Shown: positions 8,842-28,150, counted from the first letter of the stretch. The stretch is 59,605 bases of DNA from Patescibacteria group bacterium (GCA_041649155.1 JBAZNP010000001.1:739183-798787), one strand, 5' to 3'. The notes: generated by a model not told the origin, from the sequence alone. Translations and numbers: made by a program.

Positions 8842-10011
8842 TTACTGGACGCTAACATTGCCTTCCGGTGGGATGACACATATCCAGAATTGTCCCCGAT
8901 TAAAGACAATTTCATTGCCTGCTTCGTCGTAAAAAAGCTCTCTATCTGCGGCGGAGTCTTTTTTCCATGTTCCTTTGATCTCTTTACCGTCAATGAATAT
9001 TTCTGCTGTTCCTGATCCAATTGTGGTCATGGTGTACCCAGCTTCATTAATCCTTGTTGTAGTAGGCTGACGTTTAACTGTCATTACAATCACATTCTTA
9101 GGATTAAGCTGATTTTTGCTCATTTTATCAATATGCGGACTTCCTGCCAACGATCTTTTGTATGAATTTGTTGCCTTATCGTAATCGAAAGCAACATTAA
9201 ATTGTGCGCTTGAAAAAACCACTGAAACTTTTTGTTTCTCTGGGATATTGGCTTTTTCGGTGTCAGTTGGATCATCTTTAAACTTTAAAATATTAAAATT
9301 ATTGGCAGTTGGATAGTTGTTGCTTTTAGCCTGTTCGCGCAATTTTAGCGTTGATGTATACATAGTGTGCTCAGTAGCCAAACCTGCACTTTGTTCTCTC
9401 CAATATGAACCTGAGTATCTAAATTGATCTAAGTCTAAAATCTTATCTTTTGGAATTTTATCAAGCGCATCCATGTTACCACCTACATGGGCAAAGAACG
9501 CATTATAGCCATGAGCCCAATCAACAAAATAGGTTCTGGCTGAACGGACAGGCCCGACTTTTTCTGCCTCATTTGTTCCGAAAATAGCTAGAAAACGGGT
9601 AATTCCTCCCTCAGCAATTGCTTCGTAAACTATGCTAGCCTTGCTAAGTCCTGACTGAGGCCTGGCATCAGGATGGTTTTCCACAATAACACCTAATGGA
9701 TGGCGGTTAGCTGACTCCTGATCGGTCATTACGCCGTCCAGAATTGCAGAATAAAGCGTTTCGCTGACTTTGCTATCGTCGGTTTTAATATCTTCGTTTT
9801 TTGAGGTTGTTGTTTTTTCATGTGATTGTATGTATAGCCCTGTTCCAACTGCGGCAATAATAACCGCCCCAACGCTTATGATAAAAATCAGGCGTTTCTT
9901 TGGATTAGCAAAAAAATCCTGAACTTTCTGTCTAATCCTTTCGATTTTTTGTTTCAGTCCCCTTTTTGGTTTGTTCTGACCTTCTTCTTCGTTTAGTTCA
10001 ATGTCCGACAT
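8842..10011 (-). CDS. DUF3048 family membrane-anchored protein
   Basis: Single TM; VENHPDARPQSGL, YEAIAEGGITRF, GPVRSAR, HVGG. Confidence 0.85.
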   Translation of the reverse strand: MSDIELNEEEGQNKPKRGLKQKIERIRQKVQDFFANPKKRLIFIISVGAVIIAAVGTGLYIQSHEKTTTSKNEDIKTDDSKVSETLYSAILDGVMTDQESANRHPLGVIVENHPDARPQSGLSKASIVYEAIAEGGITRFLAIFGTNEAEKVGPVRSARTYFVDWAHGYNAFFAHVGGNMDALDKIPKDKILDLDQFRYSGSYWREQSAGLATEHTMYTSTLKLREQAKSNNYPTANNFNILKFKDDPTDTEKANIPEKQKVSVVFSSAQFNVAFDYDKATNSYKRSLAGSPHIDKMSKNQLNPKNVIVMTVKRQPTTTRINEAGYTMTTIGSGTAEIFIDGKEIKGTWKKDSAADRELFYDEAGNEIVFNRGQFWICVIPPEGNVSVQ

Positions 10012-10160: not shown

Positions 10161-10236
10161 CTGTCATTACCAAATCTGAACGCTCAGCCGACACTCGCAA
10201 AAACAATATACTCATCAAATTTCGCTTACTATAATA

Positions 10237-11160
10237 TTAATGCCAATCAGCTAAAATTCCTCTTTTGCCTTGTAGCTTTTGTAAATAGTCGTAACAGGAC
10301 AGCGCTGCTTTTGCTCCTTCTGCGGCGGAGATAATCGCTTGTTTGTATGGAGTTACGGTTAAGTCTCCGGCGGCAAAAATGCCAGGGACAGAAGTTTCCT
10401 GAATATTATTTACAATTACCTGCTTTTTACTATCGACATCAACTAATCCTTCCACTAGGGAATGATCAACAATAAAACCAACTTCAACAATCACGCCATC
10501 AGTTTCTATTGTTTTTTCGTCAGACAAGACGACAGACTTAACTACTTGCTCACCTTTTATTTCTTTGATCTGACTGTTGAATACTATTTCAATGTTTTTT
10601 GTGAAGTTAATGGTATCGATCAAGACCTGTTCTCCAGTAAAAGAGCTGCGGCGATGAATCAAATAAACTTTTTTGCAATATTTCGAAGCCAGAAGTGCTG
10701 CGTCCAAAGCGGAATTTCCTCCTCCGACTACTACTAAGGTTTTATTTTTAAAGAAGGGAGCATCACATGTAGCACAGTAGGAAACGCCTCTACCTTTAAA
10801 CTCATTTTCGCCTGGAACTCCTAATTCCCTAGGCTTTTTACCTGAGGCTAAAATGACTGTCTTGGCTTCATATTCGTTTCGTAAGGTTTTAACTGTAAAT
10901 TCACCTTTTGTTTTTGTGACCTTTACTGTTTCCTCAAAAACAATTGTAGCACCAAATTTTTCTGCCTGAGTTTTAAACTTGTTTGCTAGTTCGACACCAG
11001 AAATTTTTTCCACGCCGGGATAATTTTCAATATCCGGAGTTTTAGCTATTTGTCCGCCGATGTCACGGCTAATAACCAAAGTTTTTAAAGCTCTTCTGGA
11101 AGAGTAAATAGCCGCACTAAGACCGGCTGGTCCACCACCAATAATTATCACATCATACAT
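10237..11160 (-). CDS. trxB: Thioredoxin reductase
   Basis: [19 protein letters not shown] redox motif, [13 protein letters not shown]. Confidence 0.96.
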
Positions 11161-22238: not shown

Positions 22239-23561
22239 CTACTCTCTACCTTCTACTTTCTTATCGCACTGACAAGTTTTTAATCTGTTTTTGATAGCTT
22301 CAACAATAGCAGCTTTAGGAAAACTTTCCTGCGAGGATGCTTCCAGATCGCGAAGAATCAAATCATCTTTCAGCGCCTCTTTTTGACCGATGATGATGGC
22401 ATATTTTGCCCCAAGTTTAGAAGCCATACGAATTTGTTGGCGAAGGCCGTCATTGGATGGTACAAAATAGACGTTAATATCATTACCTGACAAGCTGTCA
22501 TAAATCTTTTTCGAAACAGATTTTGCCTTATCTCCTAATTGCAAGATGCAAACTTCAACGCCTCGTTTGGCAGGCACTTTAATTTTTTGCTCTTTCATTA
22601 AATTAACAATTCTTTCGATCCCCAGCGAAAAACCAACTGCTGGTGTTTTGGGGCCGCCTAAAAGTTCAACTAAGCCATTGTATCGTCCGCCACCGCCGAC
22701 AACGTTTTGTCTTGATTTATCATTTTTATCAGCTATTTCAAACACAGTATTTGTATAATAATCTAGACCACGAACCAAAGTGTGATCAAGGTCATATTTG
22801 ATGTCGAAGTAATCTAAATATTCCAAGGTATCTTGAAAATGTTTTTTGCATTCCGGACAGAGTGAATCAAGGATAACCGGTGCGCCCTTAGCCGCTTTAA
22901 CGCATTTTTCCTCTTTGCAGTCCAAGAGACGAAGAGGATTTTTGTCATATCTTTCCTGACAGTCTTCACATAAGTCTTTTAGATTGCTTTTGTAATATTT
23001 TTTCAATTTTGCGATGTATTTTGGACGGCAAATCGGGCAACCGATTGAATTAGTGTAAACTTTAAGGTTTTTTAAACCAAGGCGAGTTAGGATTTCCCAA
23101 GCTGACATAATGGCAAGATAGTCAGACTTTGCTGTTTCGTCGCCGAATATTTCAACACCCAGCTGATAGAATTCTCGAAAACGACCTTTTTGTGGTCTTT
23201 CGTGTCGGAACATTGATCCAAAGTAGTAGAGTCTAACAGGTTGTGGCCAGCTGGACATTCCGTTTTGAACAAAAGATCGCACAATTCCCGCTGTTCCTTC
23301 TGGTCGTAAAGCATATGAGGCCGTTTCTTCTTTTTCGGATGTTTTTTCTAGCAGAAACATTTCTTTCTTTACAATGTCGGTGTCTTGTCCAATTCCACGA
23401 GAAAAAACTTCAACATTTTCAAAATGCGGAGTGTCAATTCTGTCAAAGCTCAATCCCTCTAGAGTTTTTTGAGAGATTTCTCTAACGTGTTGCCAGTAGT
23501 GTTGTTCTGGTGGAAGAATATCTTTAGTCCCTCTGGCTGATTGATAATTTGCTTTGGCCAT
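22239..23561 (-). CDS. hisS: Histidyl-tRNA synthetase (start likely 23561)
   Basis: RGTKDILP, ALRPEGTAG, FRHERPQKGRFREF, LVRGLDYYT, GGGRYNGL. Confidence 0.98.
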   Translation of the reverse strand: MAKANYQSARGTKDILPPEQHYWQHVREISQKTLEGLSFDRIDTPHFENVEVFSRGIGQDTDIVKKEMFLLEKTSEKEETASYALRPEGTAGIVRSFVQNGMSSWPQPVRLYYFGSMFRHERPQKGRFREFYQLGVEIFGDETAKSDYLAIMSAWEILTRLGLKNLKVYTNSIGCPICRPKYIAKLKKYYKSNLKDLCEDCQERYDKNPLRLLDCKEEKCVKAAKGAPVILDSLCPECKKHFQDTLEYLDYFDIKYDLDHTLVRGLDYYTNTVFEIADKNDKSRQNVVGGGGRYNGLVELLGGPKTPAVGFSLGIERIVNLMKEQKIKVPAKRGVEVCILQLGDKAKSVSKKIYDSLSGNDINVYFVPSNDGLRQQIRMASKLGAKYAIIIGQKEALKDDLILRDLEASSQESFPKAAIVEAIKNRLKTCQCDKKVEGRE

Positions 23562-23588
23562 TTTTGTCTCCAATAGAGAATTAATTGC

Positions 23589-23721
23589 TTTTATTACAAG
23601 ATATAAATAGTAAATACCTCAATGCGTAAAAAAGGTGAAATACCGCCCCGATTCATCGGGGCAACATGCCCGATTTTAGGGCAGTGTCCAGGGCTTGCCC
23701 TGGGGTATGATACCCTTTATA
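23589..23721 (-). repeat. 133-bp structured element, family A copy 1
   Basis: Reverse complement matches 27711-27843 at both ends. Confidence 0.85.
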
Positions 23722-23813
23722 GCGGTTGCCCAAATCGTAACAAGATTGAAGCCAAAAATCAACAAGCATGCAGTGAGTTCTTATATTTTGGAGAATTTAT
23801 TTTATTTTAATAA

Positions 23814-26327
23814 TTAAGCTTTGGTTTTTGAGAGTTTCAAGGAGCCTTTTTCAATGGAGATTTTTAGAGTATCGCCTGATGAGAATTCTTCAGTTAATAT
23901 CCCCTCCGAAATTGGAGTTTCTATATAGTCGGAGATCACTTTCCTAATCGGTCTTGCTCCAAATTCCGGACTAAATCCTTTTTCAGCGATCCAATCCTTA
24001 ACCTCTTTTCTAACTGAGAGAGAAAATTTTAAAATTGAAAGTCTTTTCTTGAGATCGATTAGTTGAATTTCAACAATTTTTCTAATGCTTTCTTTTGAAA
24101 GTGGTTCAAAAACAATAATCTTGTCAATTCGGTTCAAAAACTCAGGTTTGAAGTGTTTCTTAATCGACTCCATAACATGATCTTTTAGTTTTTGATATTC
24201 GTATTCAGCATTTTTATTGTTAAAACCAATGGCAGCTTGTTTGTTTAAAATATCCGTACCAAGATTTGAAGTCATTATTATGATTGTATTTTTGAAATCA
24301 ACTTTCCTGCCTTTAGCATCCGTTAACTCCCCGTCTTCTAGTATCTGCAGTAAAATATTAAAAACTTCGGGATGAGCTTTTTCAATTTCGTCAAGTAAAA
24401 TTATTGAGAAAGGATTTTTTCTGACAGTTTCTGTTAATTTGCCACCCTCTTCAAAACCAATATAACCGGCGGGTGCGCCCACTAGTCGGGAGACGTTATG
24501 TTTTTCCATAAACTCTGACATGTCGATCTTAATGATTGAATTTTCATTTCCAAGCATCTCCTTCGCCAATGTTTTTGCAAGTTCGGATTTGCCTACTCCG
24601 GTAGGCCCCAGAAAGATGAATGAGCCGGTTGGTCTGTTAGGGTTGGAAATTCCAACCCTGGCTCGCTTGATTGCCTGAGCGATTGATTTGACGGCTTCGT
24701 CTTGGCCGATAATCCGTTTCATAATTCTCTTGTCTAAATCAAGATAACGTTTTTTCTCTTCTAACGTTAGACTGGAAACAGATATGCCTGTCCATTTGGA
24801 AATTAAGCTCGCAATATCTTCTATTCCGATTTCCTTTTTGGTTACCTTTTCACTCTTGGACTGGATCCTTTTCATTTCCTGTTCGATTATGACCTCTTTT
24901 TTTCGAAGCATGGTTGCTTCTTTATATTTTTCTATCATAATCAGGTCATCCTTTTGCTTTAAAATACTCCTTAACTCTTTTTTGAGTTTGTTAAGTAAAA
25001 CGGCATTTTCGGAGATCTTGGACGCGGCAGCTCCAGCTTCATCGATTAAATCAATTGCTTTATCTGGAAGGAAGCGGTCGTTTATATATCTTTTTGATAG
25101 CTTTACGGCAGCCTCAATCGCCTCACGGGTGTATTTTATTCCGTGATGACTTTCATATTTGCTTTTTATCCCTGCTAAAATTTTTATTGATTCAGGGATG
25201 CTGGGTTCGGAAACTTTTACTGGCTGAAACCGTCTTTCAAAGGCAGGATCTTTTTCAATATGTTTCTTATATTCATCAAAAGTGGTCGAGCCGATTGTCC
25301 GGAGTTCGCCTTTGGCCAACATTGGTTTAAGGAGATTTGCAGCATCAATCGATCCTTCGGTTGAGCCTGCACCAACAACAGTATGAATTTCGTCAATAAA
25401 CAAAATTACGTTGCCTTTTTTCTTGATTTCGTCAAGAATTTTTTTGACTCTGCTTTCAAATTGTCCGCGATACATTGTTCCGGCAATCAGTGCTCCCATA
25501 TCCAAGGACAATATTTCTTTATTCAGAAGGTTTGCTGTTACTCTACCGTCGATGATTTTTTTTGCCAATCCTTCAACAATTGATGTCTTCCCCACTCCGG
25601 GGTCTCCGACTAGAATCGGGTTGTTTTTAGTCCTTCTTGATAATATTTGAATAATTCGTTCGGTTTCAGCTTCTCTGCCAATTACGGGGTCAAGTTTATT
25701 TTCTGCTGCCAGTTTATTAATATTGGTTGTATAAAGTTCAAGCTGAGAAATTGTTTTTGCTTTAGACATGGTCTGACCGCCGCTCTGCATTGGCCCCATT
25801 GGTCCGAAAAAATCATTATCTCCCATTCCTATTTCATTCATGATATTTTCATTTTCCGGTGGAATATTTACTTGAGCAAAAGTTTCGTTTATGTTGCCAA
25901 AAATTGATTCGATTTGTTTGACGATGTTATCGGGACTAACGCCTATCCTTTTAATAATAATATATGAATTAAAAGATTCATCTGACAATAAAGCAATTAG
26001 AAGATGTTCGCAATCAACAACTGAATGATTGTGTTTAGAAGCGATCTTAACAGCTGCCTGAATTGATTTCTTGGACTCACCTGACAATCCAATCGGTTTT
26101 TTTGATATATTCTGTTTGCTAATTAAAGAACCAACCAATTGAATTTGGTCGGGTCCGATTTTAAAGCTTGAAAGTACTTCAAAAGCTAGATTGTTTTTAA
26201 TCATAGACAGAGCTAAAAGCTGGTGTTCTGTATTCATGGGAGTGTTTTGCTCTTTCGATATCCGCTCTGACATGATTAAAACTTTTTTCAGATTTTCACT
26301 AAATTTTTTAAAAATATCTTGGTTCAT
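23814..26327 (-). CDS. clpC: ClpC-type AAA+ protease ATPase subunit
   Basis: Clp-N repeats, GDPGVGKT, FIDEIH, UVR-like coil, GPTGVGKS, LLDEIEKAH, IGF loop. Confidence 0.95.
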   Translation of the reverse strand: MNQDIFKKFSENLKKVLIMSERISKEQNTPMNTEHQLLALSMIKNNLAFEVLSSFKIGPDQIQLVGSLISKQNISKKPIGLSGESKKSIQAAVKIASKHNHSVVDCEHLLIALLSDESFNSYIIIKRIGVSPDNIVKQIESIFGNINETFAQVNIPPENENIMNEIGMGDNDFFGPMGPMQSGGQTMSKAKTISQLELYTTNINKLAAENKLDPVIGREAETERIIQILSRRTKNNPILVGDPGVGKTSIVEGLAKKIIDGRVTANLLNKEILSLDMGALIAGTMYRGQFESRVKKILDEIKKKGNVILFIDEIHTVVGAGSTEGSIDAANLLKPMLAKGELRTIGSTTFDEYKKHIEKDPAFERRFQPVKVSEPSIPESIKILAGIKSKYESHHGIKYTREAIEAAVKLSKRYINDRFLPDKAIDLIDEAGAAASKISENAVLLNKLKKELRSILKQKDDLIMIEKYKEATMLRKKEVIIEQEMKRIQSKSEKVTKKEIGIEDIASLISKWTGISVSSLTLEEKKRYLDLDKRIMKRIIGQDEAVKSIAQAIKRARVGISNPNRPTGSFIFLGPTGVGKSELAKTLAKEMLGNENSIIKIDMSEFMEKHNVSRLVGAPAGYIGFEEGGKLTETVRKNPFSIILLDEIEKAHPEVFNILLQILEDGELTDAKGRKVDFKNTIIIMTSNLGTDILNKQAAIGFNNKNAEYEYQKLKDHVMESIKKHFKPEFLNRIDKIIVFEPLSKESIRKIVEIQLIDLKKRLSILKFSLSVRKEVKDWIAEKGFSPEFGARPIRKVISDYIETPISEGILTEEFSSGDTLKISIEKGSLKLSKTKA

Positions 26328-26500
26328 AAGTTTATATTATTATTTTTGTTGTTTAAATAAGTTAACGTATAATTATTATACTAAAAAATATAAAAAGCAA
26401 GATACAAAAAGTGAGCACTAATCAAATATCTAAACCAAAAATACTTAAATATTTAATTGAGTTATTAATAGGGCATGCAAGTTTCTGGTTTTAGCTAAGA

Positions 26501-27607
26501 TTATTCTTCGGAATTTTCAGGCTCTTCTGCAGGTTTTTCCTCTTTTTTCTTAGTTTCTTCTTCGTCAAGAACAACATCTATTCCCCAGCCAGTTAGTTTT
26601 GAGGCCAGACGAACATTCTGTCCGCCCTTCCCAATTGCTAAGGATAAGCTTTCTTGGTCTACAAAAACAGTAGCCTTATTGTCTTTTGACGATATGGAGA
26701 TTTTTTTTGTTTTCGCAGGAGAGAGTGCATTCATGATGAATTGTTCAACATCTTCGTCCCAAAGAACAATATCTATTTTTTCTTCACCGATTTCAGCCAA
26801 AACTGCCTGAACTCTAGTTCCGCGTTGTCCAACACAAGAACCAACCGGATCAATCTTGTCTTCAGTTGCGATGACGGCTAATTTCGTTCTGGATCCAGCT
26901 TCTCTGGCAATGCTTTTAATGTCTACTGTTCCAGCATTGATTTCCGGTACTTCGAGCTCAAAAAGACCGCGGATTAATTCTTTGTCGGATCTCGAGACAA
27001 TGATTTGAGGACCTCTAGTCGTCTCGGCTACTTCTTTAACGTAGACTTTGATCCTTTGTCCAATATAATATCTTTCTTCCCGAACCTGATCAGCAGGATA
27101 CATAATACCATTAGCTTTTCCAAGAGAAGCTATCACATTTTTACCTTCAAGTTGTTGTACAGTTGCATTAACAACCTGGTTTTCTTTATCTTTAAATTCT
27201 TTATAAAGTAGTTCTCTTTCAGCCTCTCTGATTCTTTGAATGATGACTTGTTTGGCGGTTTGTGCTGCAATTCTTCCAAATTCCTCTTTCTTTTCGAGTG
27301 GAATAGATACTTCATCGCCAACTTTAGCTTTTTTATTTAACTTTAAAGCCTGATCAAGTGTTAGTTCTTGTTCTTTTTCTTTAACTTCCTCTTCCGAGTC
27401 AACGACTACATAGACCCTAAACATATCAGCTTGTCCTGTTATGGGATCTATTTTTGCTTTCAATATTTGTTTAGGTTTTCCGTAATCTTTTCTATAAGCG
27501 GCAGCAAGAGCGGCTTCAACTGTCTCAATTACAACGTCCTTATTTAAGCCTTTATCTTCGCAGATTTCTTCGATTGCACTCATAAATGGGTTTGAATTTT
27601 GTGCCAT
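26501..27607 (-). CDS. nusA: Transcription termination factor NusA
   Basis: FGRIAAQTAKQVI, AREAGSRTK, GKGGQNVRLASKLTGW. Confidence 0.99.
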   Translation of the reverse strand: MAQNSNPFMSAIEEICEDKGLNKDVVIETVEAALAAAYRKDYGKPKQILKAKIDPITGQADMFRVYVVVDSEEEVKEKEQELTLDQALKLNKKAKVGDEVSIPLEKKEEFGRIAAQTAKQVIIQRIREAERELLYKEFKDKENQVVNATVQQLEGKNVIASLGKANGIMYPADQVREERYYIGQRIKVYVKEVAETTRGPQIIVSRSDKELIRGLFELEVPEINAGTVDIKSIAREAGSRTKLAVIATEDKIDPVGSCVGQRGTRVQAVLAEIGEEKIDIVLWDEDVEQFIMNALSPAKTKKISISSKDNKATVFVDQESLSLAIGKGGQNVRLASKLTGWGIDVVLDEEETKKKEEKPAEEPENSEE

Positions 27608-27620
27608 GTTTTCTCCCTTG

Positions 27621-27676
27621 CCCCGTTAAATCCGCGAAGCGGTAATTCTGCTACGGCAGAATGTATTTAACTGGGG
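27621..27676. repeat. Three-way-junction palindromic element before nusA RBS
   Basis: CCCCGTTAAAT/ATTTAACTGGGG closing CCGC-gaa-GCGG and TTCTGC-tacg-GCAGAA. Confidence 0.6.
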
Positions 27677-27710
27677 TTTGTTAATTTATTTTATTTCTTT
27701 AATTATATCA

Positions 27711-27843
27711 TATAAAGGGTATTATACCCCAGGGCAAGCCCTGGACTTTGTCCCGATTTATCGGGACAATTGCGCGGCAAGCCGCGAGGTATTTCACCTT
27801 TTTTACGCACCGAATTATTTACTATTTGTATCTTGTAATAAAA
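27711..27843 (+). repeat. 133-bp structured element, family A copy 2
   Basis: Inverted copy of 23589-23721. Confidence 0.85.
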
Positions 27844-28150
27844 CTAATCTGATTTAAAAAGCGGTAACCGAAACGGCTACCTTACTTAATTTACATAGTA
27901 CAGCAAAAACATGCTGCATGTCAAGAATTTCTTATTGTTTTATGAATTATTATTCAGGGGCGCACAAGTAGTGCATAATCCATTTTCTCACGAATAATTT
28001 TGAATTTGTGAAAACTTACAAAAATACTTTATTTTTTAGGGTGATTTTATAGATTTTTCATGATGTAGTTTACTCCTCTTAGCGATAATCTTTGAGATGT
28101 AATTAATTTAGTTCTTTATCACAAAATAGCAGTAATTTGTGGCTTTACTC

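Follow-up and report, generated by a model that had tools for sequence, protein, structure and literature searches.

Two 133-nt repeats lie in inverted orientation around the clpC-nusA segment of a 59,605-nt stretch of DNA (hereafter the window) from the 0.99-Mb genome of a tiny Saccharibacteria-like bacterium (Patescibacteria group bacterium, GCA_041649155.1; JBAZNP010000001.1:739183-798787), and are described here as copies of a gene-less, hairpin-rich element. Copy A occupies positions 23589-23721 on the minus strand, sense within the 5' leader of hisS, and copy B positions 27711-27843 on the plus strand, in the nusA leader and antisense to that gene; the inner ends of the pair are 3,989 nt apart. 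A repeat search recovered both copies at the positions and lengths given in the original prediction, with 80% identity across positions 1-133 (BLAST within the genome, E 7.9e-28), far beyond chance, and a longest common exact stretch of ~36 nt. The three blocks that the pair had been said to share are present exactly as quoted, as are the differing 41-nt middles, each with two perfect hairpins.

Pfam assignments bear out the proposed gene context, namely hisS (22239-23573, minus strand; true ATG at 23561), a clpC-like AAA+ gene (23814-26327, minus strand) and nusA (26501-27607, minus strand), with a PucR-like regulator gene on the plus strand. Copy A sits in the sense orientation between the ribosome-binding site and start codon of hisS and its conserved, ancestral promoter, TTGATT-17 nt-TACGAT with TG upstream (23734-23762, minus strand; -35 at 23757-23762, -10 at 23734-23739). 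Upstream of copy B, the nusA leader (27863-27924, minus strand) holds a promoter-like TTGACA-18-TACTAT (27924-27895) followed by a hairpin and T-run (27881-27863); this hairpin region is kept in the sister species, which lacks copy B, and the arrangement could be an attenuator of the NusA-autoregulation type. Two plus-strand open reading frames (ORFs) overlap the repeats, one of 62 amino acids over copy A (23622-23810) and one of 59 amino acids over copy B (27678-27857); the former is annotated as a gene in public assemblies (L133, 1252-1440; L134, 569-757), probably as an artefact of the repeat.

The element is read here with its 5' module first (the reader's orientation), and the complementary strand is termed the folding strand, or T-strand, on which the 5' module forms the right end (RE) and the 3' module the left end (LE). 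The 5' module of copy B (TATAAAGGGTATTATACCCCAGGGCAAGCCCTGGAC; 27711-27746, plus strand; 23686-23721, minus strand, in A) contains a near-invariant core hairpin, P2, of the form CCAGGG-CAAG-CCCTGG (27729-27744, plus strand), with 86% of cells paired. Two variable plus-strand hairpins follow in B: P3, TTGTCCCGAT-TT-ATCGGGACAA (27748-27769), which corresponds to TGCCC..GGGCA in A (23667-23683), and P4, CGCGG-CAAG-CCGCG (27773-27786), the slot of which holds GCCCCGATGAATCGGGGC in A (23645-23662; arms GCCCCGAT..ATCGGGGC), identical to P3 of the copy at C1:605673 (C1 and C2 being contigs of the same genome). A long-range stem, P1 (27714-27802, plus strand), pairs AAAGGGT (27714-27720) with ACCTTTT (27796-27802) and ATACC (27724-27728) with GGTAT (27788-27792), closing the three hairpins into a multi-branch fold followed by T6; RNAfold thus refines the picture of the 5' block, GGGTAT..ATACC, which pairs with the distal GGTAT..ACCTTTT block and not with itself. 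The 3' module (TTTTTTACGCACCGAATTATTTACTATTTGTATCTTGTAATAAAA; 27799-27843, plus strand; 23589-23633, minus strand, in A) is a 45-nt tail that also occurs alone and ends in TATCTTGTAA; in alignment A2 of this module TATCTTG is invariant and the full 12-mer TATCTTGTAATA is at least 90% conserved. The TAAAA at the 3' tip of A (23589-23593, minus strand; TTTTA on the folding strand; equivalent to 27839-27843 in B) is, to judge from the empty hisS site of the sister species, most likely the host target pentanucleotide and not part of the element.

In general form, the element thus comprises a near-invariant end module GGTAT..ACCCC-AGGGCAAGCCCT-GGAC, one to three interchangeable GC-rich hairpins, a closing stem and the tail, with no gene and no terminal inverted repeats. 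The middle hairpins differ between copies in both sequence and number (0 to 3), the RE hairpin lies ~20 nt from its tip and the first LE hairpin ~50 nt from its own. The equal length of the middles of A and B, to which attention had been drawn, holds at 41 nt each but is a coincidence, other copies having 42-nt or quite different middles.

Copies within and beyond the genome

Genome-wide BLAST recovered five full copies (A, B, C2:22921, C1:23102 and C1:605673) and three solo 3' modules (C1:9522, C2:75165 and C2:77502). Copy B is 87-93% identical to the three full copies outside the window, and these four are mutually 87-94% identical; copy A is the outlier lineage, with 80-84% identity to the other four and 81% to a copy from a different genus. 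Wider searches used covariance and profile models, R1 for the 5' module and R2 for the 3' module. R1 identified the 5' module in 9 of 23 genomes from the taxonomic family and, among 401 genomes sampled evenly across the phylum, in only 10, which belong to 7 different taxonomic families. The 3' module was found by R2 in 11 of the 23 family genomes, with eight copies in the window's own genome and a maximum of 18 (G014); copy number ranges from 1 to 18 per genome.

At least 119 metagenome contigs contain the 21-mer of the 5' module, ACCCCAGGGCAAGCCCTGGAC, without a mismatch, and GC content spans 31-56% in the 68 loci of 2 kb or more among those listed. Metagenome copies fall into subfamilies with a common 5' core but differing 3' halves and end motifs. 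Several of the 21-mer contigs encode proteins resembling those of other phyla (translations judged by eye), including a huge outer-membrane-receptor-like protein, TctA, and a fused aspartokinase/homoserine dehydrogenase, and on the strength of such proteins some contigs look like they come from outside the host phylum. Approximately ten non-Patescibacteria matches in a pattern scan of genome contigs were discounted, as they lie in coding sequence and their number equals the chance expectation. No relevant Rfam match, at gathering or permissive thresholds, was returned for the window, for any copy in the genome (with the surroundings of A and B searched at E up to 10) or for seven metagenome loci (E up to 0.1); phage, plasmid and IMG/VR collections contained no match to the element, and keyword and sequence-string searches of the literature gave no description of it.

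Covariation and the constrained strand

The folds of A and B are more stable than those of shuffled sequences (RNAfold; z -4.4 to -4.6), with none of 200 shuffles as good. A whole-element MAFFT alignment puts the variable hairpins out of register, and covariation of P1 was therefore assessed by arm swapping, comparing the pairing of arms within their own copy with that of arms exchanged between genera. Arms of one copy form the better pairing (permutation p=0.0006; 19 copies, 9 genera); compensatory changes are seen in G016, G018, G005 and G026, and arm pairs differ between genera (AAAGGGT/ACCCTTT, AAAAGGT/ACCTTTT, AATGGGT/ACCCATT and TAAGGGGTAT/ATACCCCTTA); the core hairpin P2, which shows little variation, covaries only weakly. 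The structural covariation sought as a check on the original prediction was accordingly found in the long-range stem.

The strand on which this structure is constrained was examined in 130 distinct family segments, through single mismatches inside Watson-Crick helices and through hairpin loops. In the reader's orientation, A.C mismatches outnumber G.T by 24 to 5, a ratio that is reversed on the folding strand, and the loop CAAG occurs in 165 hairpins where CTTG is almost never seen. Both biases indicate that the constrained strand is the complement of the reader's orientation, with G.T mismatches and CTTG loops. The same strand carries a conserved pentanucleotide directly 5' of the element (5'-TTTTA/TTACAAGATA...CCCTTTAT-3'), such that two independent lines, the mismatch and loop asymmetry and the insertion-site pentanucleotide, point to one and the same single strand. 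In a metagenome subfamily, S1 (e.g. L143 and L204), almost every copy retains a single extrahelical base in the second hairpin, CCCCGCCGC-AA-GCGGACGGGG, a feature reminiscent, by analogy, of the bulged bases read by single-strand transposases and integron integrases.

Empty and filled insertion sites

In the hisS leader the element is absent from the sister species (G001) and five other genera, and the hisS promoter (TTGAYW, 17 nt, TGyTAcgAT) is kept ~40 nt from the ATG in six other genera, counting the sister species, that lack the element there. The empty site of the sister species, ttgggcgaatgtTAAAAgcaattaat (core ..gaatgtTAAAAgcaattaat..), corresponds to a filled site in which ttgggcaaccgc is followed by the insert, TATAAAGGG...CTTGTAA, and then by TAAAAgcaattaat, with the junction at TAAAA; comparison with the sister site is consistent with an absence of target duplication for copy A, with one flank diverged. 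The nusA leader of the sister species likewise lacks copy B, and with both window sites element-free in that species, A and B represent two independent insertions. Intergenic regions containing A and B in assemblies from other samples (two for the A region, four for the B region) are 99.4-100% identical to the window, with none of the differences inside B, and both insertions look fixed in the species. The search for empty sites in relatives thus succeeded at both leaders, and the proposal of a non-autonomous element selected for structure is upheld by the further copies, the empty congener sites, the covariation of P1 and the lack of an Rfam match.

An 89-nt variant in the sister species shares the 5' module and tip motif (..ATCTT....A) of the 133-nt type. 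At least 13 copies with an identical 5' module are present, several at contig ends, and five that were checked in full are identical 94-nt blocks comprising the 89-nt insert plus TTATA. An empty site in the window's genome (cttgtaTTATAgatc) differs from its filled counterpart in the sister species (attgta, 89 nt, then TTATAgagc) by exactly 89 nt; a further copy splits a Nudix gene, where removal of 89 nt restores a 161-amino-acid ORF that aligns without gaps to its paralogues. No target duplication accompanies the variant at either the empty/filled pair or the Nudix site. This variant has recently multiplied and has broken a gene. TTATA (TATAA on the other strand) abuts LE in all six inspected 89-nt copies; of 17 copies of the 133-nt type, 8 show TTTTA and all show TA (by eye). 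RE ends in CCCTTTAT, i.e. TTTAT(T), with TTGATT, GTGATT or TTCATT in other subfamilies. A solo 3' module on a Saccharibacteria metagenome-assembled genome contig (L091; CAZEVI010000004.1) lies between 21-nt direct repeats derived from the 3' end of a SEC-C-motif gene (agaaatgctgtggaaaatagc), unlike the duplication-free insertions elsewhere.

Proposed mobilisation and competing explanations

The repeats are best read as a hairpin element resembling palindrome-associated transposable elements (PATEs) and REPINs (doublets of repetitive extragenic palindromes, REPs), one not found in Rfam or by literature searching. At a rough probability of 0.55, A and B would be old insertions that took place independently, of a small mobile element that is non-autonomous and of IS200/IS605-derived type, and would not form a functional pair. 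The folding strand (5'-TTTTA, then TTACAAGATA...CCCTTTAT-3') would fold as single-stranded DNA, to be cut and pasted in trans by an HUH/Y1-type enzyme, similar to those of IS200/IS605 or the REP-associated tyrosine transposases (RAYTs), as are PATEs and REPINs. Copies in the window's genome, 80-94% identical and with no Y1 gene present, would be relics, and their stem and T-run, possibly with an outward promoter-like tail, may explain why the element is tolerated in the leaders of the essential genes hisS and nusA. Mobilisation in trans by HUH/Y1 enzymes is favoured by the pentanucleotide target, the lack of duplication and of inverted termini, the tip motif, the one-strand hairpins and the REPIN-like stem; the end motifs also resemble the target-adjacent and transposon-encoded motifs (TAM/TEM) of IS200/IS605, TTTAT, TTCAT and TTCAC (PMC10055086).

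Among known systems, the element is most readily compared with PATEs, gene-less IS200/IS605 derivatives mobilised in trans by the Y1 HUH transposase TnpA (PMC10055086), with which it shares a short, hairpin-rich form without an ORF, no terminal inverted repeats, no target duplication, an A/T-rich pentanucleotide, TATAA or TTTTA, fixed directly 5' of the insert on one strand, with a TTTAT-like other end, a one-strand folding signature and many copies without a linked transposase. It departs from them in having no cognate TnpA or TnpB in the genomes and loci searched, an LE hairpin ~50 nt from the tip, ends joined by a long-range stem, internal hairpins that are swapped between copies and no clear lagging-strand bias. 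A likeness to REPs, bacterial interspersed mosaic elements and the REPIN-RAYT system (PMC8266576, PMC3116915) is seen in the two inverted copies of a palindromic unit, AAAGGGTATnATACCC, that form a long hairpin around a spacer; P1 pairs AAAGGGTAT..ATACC with its inverted partner and covaries, and a pure two-unit palindrome of REPIN-like form occurs in G041 (locus L030). The intergenic location, the modular mosaic and the presence of RAYT-like Y1 genes in related genomes are also shared, but the element lacks the GTAG tetranucleotide, is present at 1-18 copies per genome and not hundreds, has an additional conserved 45-nt tail, and the RAYT-like genes are flanked by unrelated repeats, i.e. there is no REPtron. 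Classical miniature inverted-repeat transposable elements, derived from DDE transposons, have the terminal inverted repeats and target-site duplication that are missing here. Pneumococcal BOX elements are composed of conserved 5' and 3' modules around variable middle modules, with end modules that pair, and are intergenic and probably co-transcribed with their neighbours; BOX, RUP and Correia elements have terminal inverted repeats, and their mobility is ascribed to DDE transposases. The pairing end modules around variable middle modules, the intergenic location and the probable co-transcription with neighbouring genes recall BOX, with no relation in sequence and, in contrast, no terminal inverted repeats or duplication.

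Several observations weigh against an HUH/Y1 origin. The Y1_Tnp family is absent from the window's genome, its presence does not track the element within the family (5 of 9 element-bearing versus 9 of 14 element-free genomes), and TnpB is absent in 9 of 10 genomes tested (the window's own and 8 of 9 relatives). Searches of the 23 family genomes, 80 metagenome loci and IMG/VR brought up no autonomous relative that has the same ends and encodes tnpA, with or without tnpB; no gene is enclosed by any LE...RE pair; and no gene family recurs beside the 80 metagenome copies (phmmer and all-against-all clustering of 1,493 ORFs, with one unrelated RAYT). Y1/RAYT-like genes in G001, G005, G054 and L174 are flanked by unrelated inverted repeats (AGGGGACGGTTCTCT, TGTACACCT.. 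and GGGTCAGGACCC). The first LE hairpin, ~50 nt from the tip, lies at a greater distance from it than in IS608, and the exact boundary of the 133-nt type is defined by a single empty site, the other flank of which has diverged. With a GC-skew origin near 345 kb and terminus near 725 kb, only five copies could be placed, of which three fit the lagging-strand template and two do not, giving no consistent replication-strand bias. Between tandem genes the folding strand is mostly antisense (27:9, relatives and the window's genome combined); if most genes are transcribed in the direction of replication, this is contrary to the simple prediction from IS608. The resemblance to HUH (IS200/IS605, RAYT) ends noted in the original prediction is strengthened by pentanucleotide insertion, the absence of duplication and inverted repeats, and strand asymmetry, but the comparison with the ends of tnpA, tnpB and RAYT loci yielded unrelated Y1 flanks in the relatives and no transposase with matching ends.

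Y1 genes of two types were encountered during these comparisons. RAYT-like genes of 210-225 amino acids (L057, L056, L058 and L059; G001, G005 and G054) are flanked across genera by the inverted repeat AGGGGACGGTTCTCT / AGAGAACCGTCCCCT, and a second type by TGTACACCT-CGT-AGGTGTACA hairpins. The ends of an IS200-like element in G004 were considered as a match to the element and rejected, with local alignments giving a non-significant z of 3 or less.

A selected regulatory cassette or insulator, in which the stem and T-run terminate or stabilise the upstream transcript, the 45-nt tail serves as a portable outward promoter and mobility is secondary, is an unlikely account. The closed stem followed by T6 would suit it, and such a terminator-plus-promoter cassette would explain how copy A can part hisS, probably essential, from its ancestral promoter; G014 likewise has a copy, an independent second one, upstream of hisS. 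In relatives about 29 of 40 tails face a co-oriented gene, and the tally of copies between tandem genes given above is 27 sense against 9 antisense; several copies stop 0-30 nt short of a start codon or ribosome-binding site, and solo tails are in each case preceded by a mini hairpin and T-run. A consensus scan found no sigma-70 -35/-10 pair at 16-18 nt spacing in the tail of A or B, however, and the best manual fit, YTGAWT-18/20 nt-TAATAA, is poor, none of several hexamer registers being convincing; across the genome TTGTAATA does not behave as a general upstream motif, whereas TGnTAnAAT, the pattern of its promoters, does (64 co-oriented versus 8 convergent). One copy in the genome lies between convergent genes, copy B is separated by 392 nt from the next gene, itself provided with a promoter, a gene is disrupted by one variant, and the patchy, phylum-wide spread fits mobile DNA better than a conserved regulator. 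The solo tail of a diversity-generating retroelement (DGR; see below) was considered as a promoter of the template repeat and rejected, since it points antisense into that repeat. A regulatory side-effect of the element is possible.

A single-strand-specific, cross-phyla system with the near-invariant 21-nt hairpin and its junction as the recognition core, served by a new, non-Y1 transposition enzyme or by a guide-RNA-like scaffold from the folding strand, is rather improbable; the latter form would have CUUG tetraloops, G.U pairs, a 3' end running into flanking DNA and, as its partner, a protein whose gene is located elsewhere. A small structured RNA gene, transcribed as the complement of the reader's orientation with G(CUUG)C tetraloops, G.U pairs and a 3' end in flanking DNA, and acting as an omega-RNA-like molecule or antisense regulator, is a long shot. 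The mismatch (24:5) and loop asymmetry fits RNA as well as single-stranded DNA, a -10-like TAYAAT lies near the LE tip on the folding strand of many copies (alignment A2), the 21-mer is kept exactly in hosts of 31-56% GC, and PATEs that encode omega-RNA have been reported (PMC10055086). TnpB is nevertheless missing from this genome, from 8 of 9 relatives and from beside the 80 metagenome copies (IscB was not searched for), the middle hairpins, 0 to 3 in number and variable in sequence, are unlike a scaffold, and the folding strand has no terminator and no conserved -35. Inversion of the ~4-kb clpC-nusA segment by recombination between the two copies, as raised in the original prediction, would act as a switch but is hardly credible, with only the geometry of two inverted 133-nt copies 3,989 nt apart in its favour. 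The copies are from different sub-lineages, only 80% identical and with exact identity limited to ~36 nt; the sister genome, without either copy, has the same nusA-clpC-hisS order and orientation, one outside contig spanning the whole segment has the window arrangement and shorter contigs at each end agree, and inversion would uncouple nusA and clpC from their promoter.

Several neighbourhoods of other copies are complex. The DGR occupies C1:9160-10321, with a template repeat (9610-9746) and variable repeat (10185-10321) that align at 85%; substitutions fall at T of the template repeat on the plus strand, which indicates that the template RNA is minus-strand. Its avd-like gene, encoded by the opposite strand, separates the template repeat from the reverse-transcriptase gene, and a solo 3' module follows the avd stop; 3' modules with a TAAGTGCGCTTCGC-type context upstream in G001, G007 and G012 suggest that this context marks DGRs there also. 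C2:74687-77543 looks like an integrated islet, with an 81-amino-acid GIY-YIG gene and a tRNA-Gln followed by a partial duplicate of the 3' half of the tRNA; a second occurrence of the tRNA end, together with the 3' module and 30 nt, lies ~2.3 kb beyond. The solo tails at C2:75165 and C2:77502 are one duplication, bounded by the repeated tRNA-Gln 3' end and bracketing DUF134-like, short-chain dehydrogenase and cytochrome-b5-like genes. On the right flank of the C1:605673 copy (C1:605805-605890), the first 23 nt of fpg (ATGCCTGAACTTCCGGAAGTCGA) are duplicated around a different short repeat, TCCCACTTCGCTAAAGCTTTGCGGGAC, of which the sister genome has four copies. CCCGAT..ATCGGG hairpins occur 28 times in the genome, some as clean, plain bidirectional terminators (e.g. 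C1:705193) and one inside 23S rRNA, and a second common repeat has the form cattcccgc...gcgggaatg.

On the reading favoured here, of old insertions of a non-autonomous, trans-mobilised element, the family is notable for its cross-genome conservation, modular interior and lack of an identifiable transposase. Ultra-small Patescibacteria genomes are usually regarded as streamlined, and a genome of this type still tolerates hairpin-packed insertions in the leaders of the essential genes hisS and nusA, and the same element core is unchanged at every base in at least 119 environmental contigs. Members of the family are repeatedly mis-called as small ORFs in public annotation. Copies of the element may serve as strain-typing markers, and call for caution when annotating leaders, riboswitch candidates and short ORFs in such genomes. 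The family is well suited to the question of how hairpin elements without genes can spread when most hosts carry no matching transposase.

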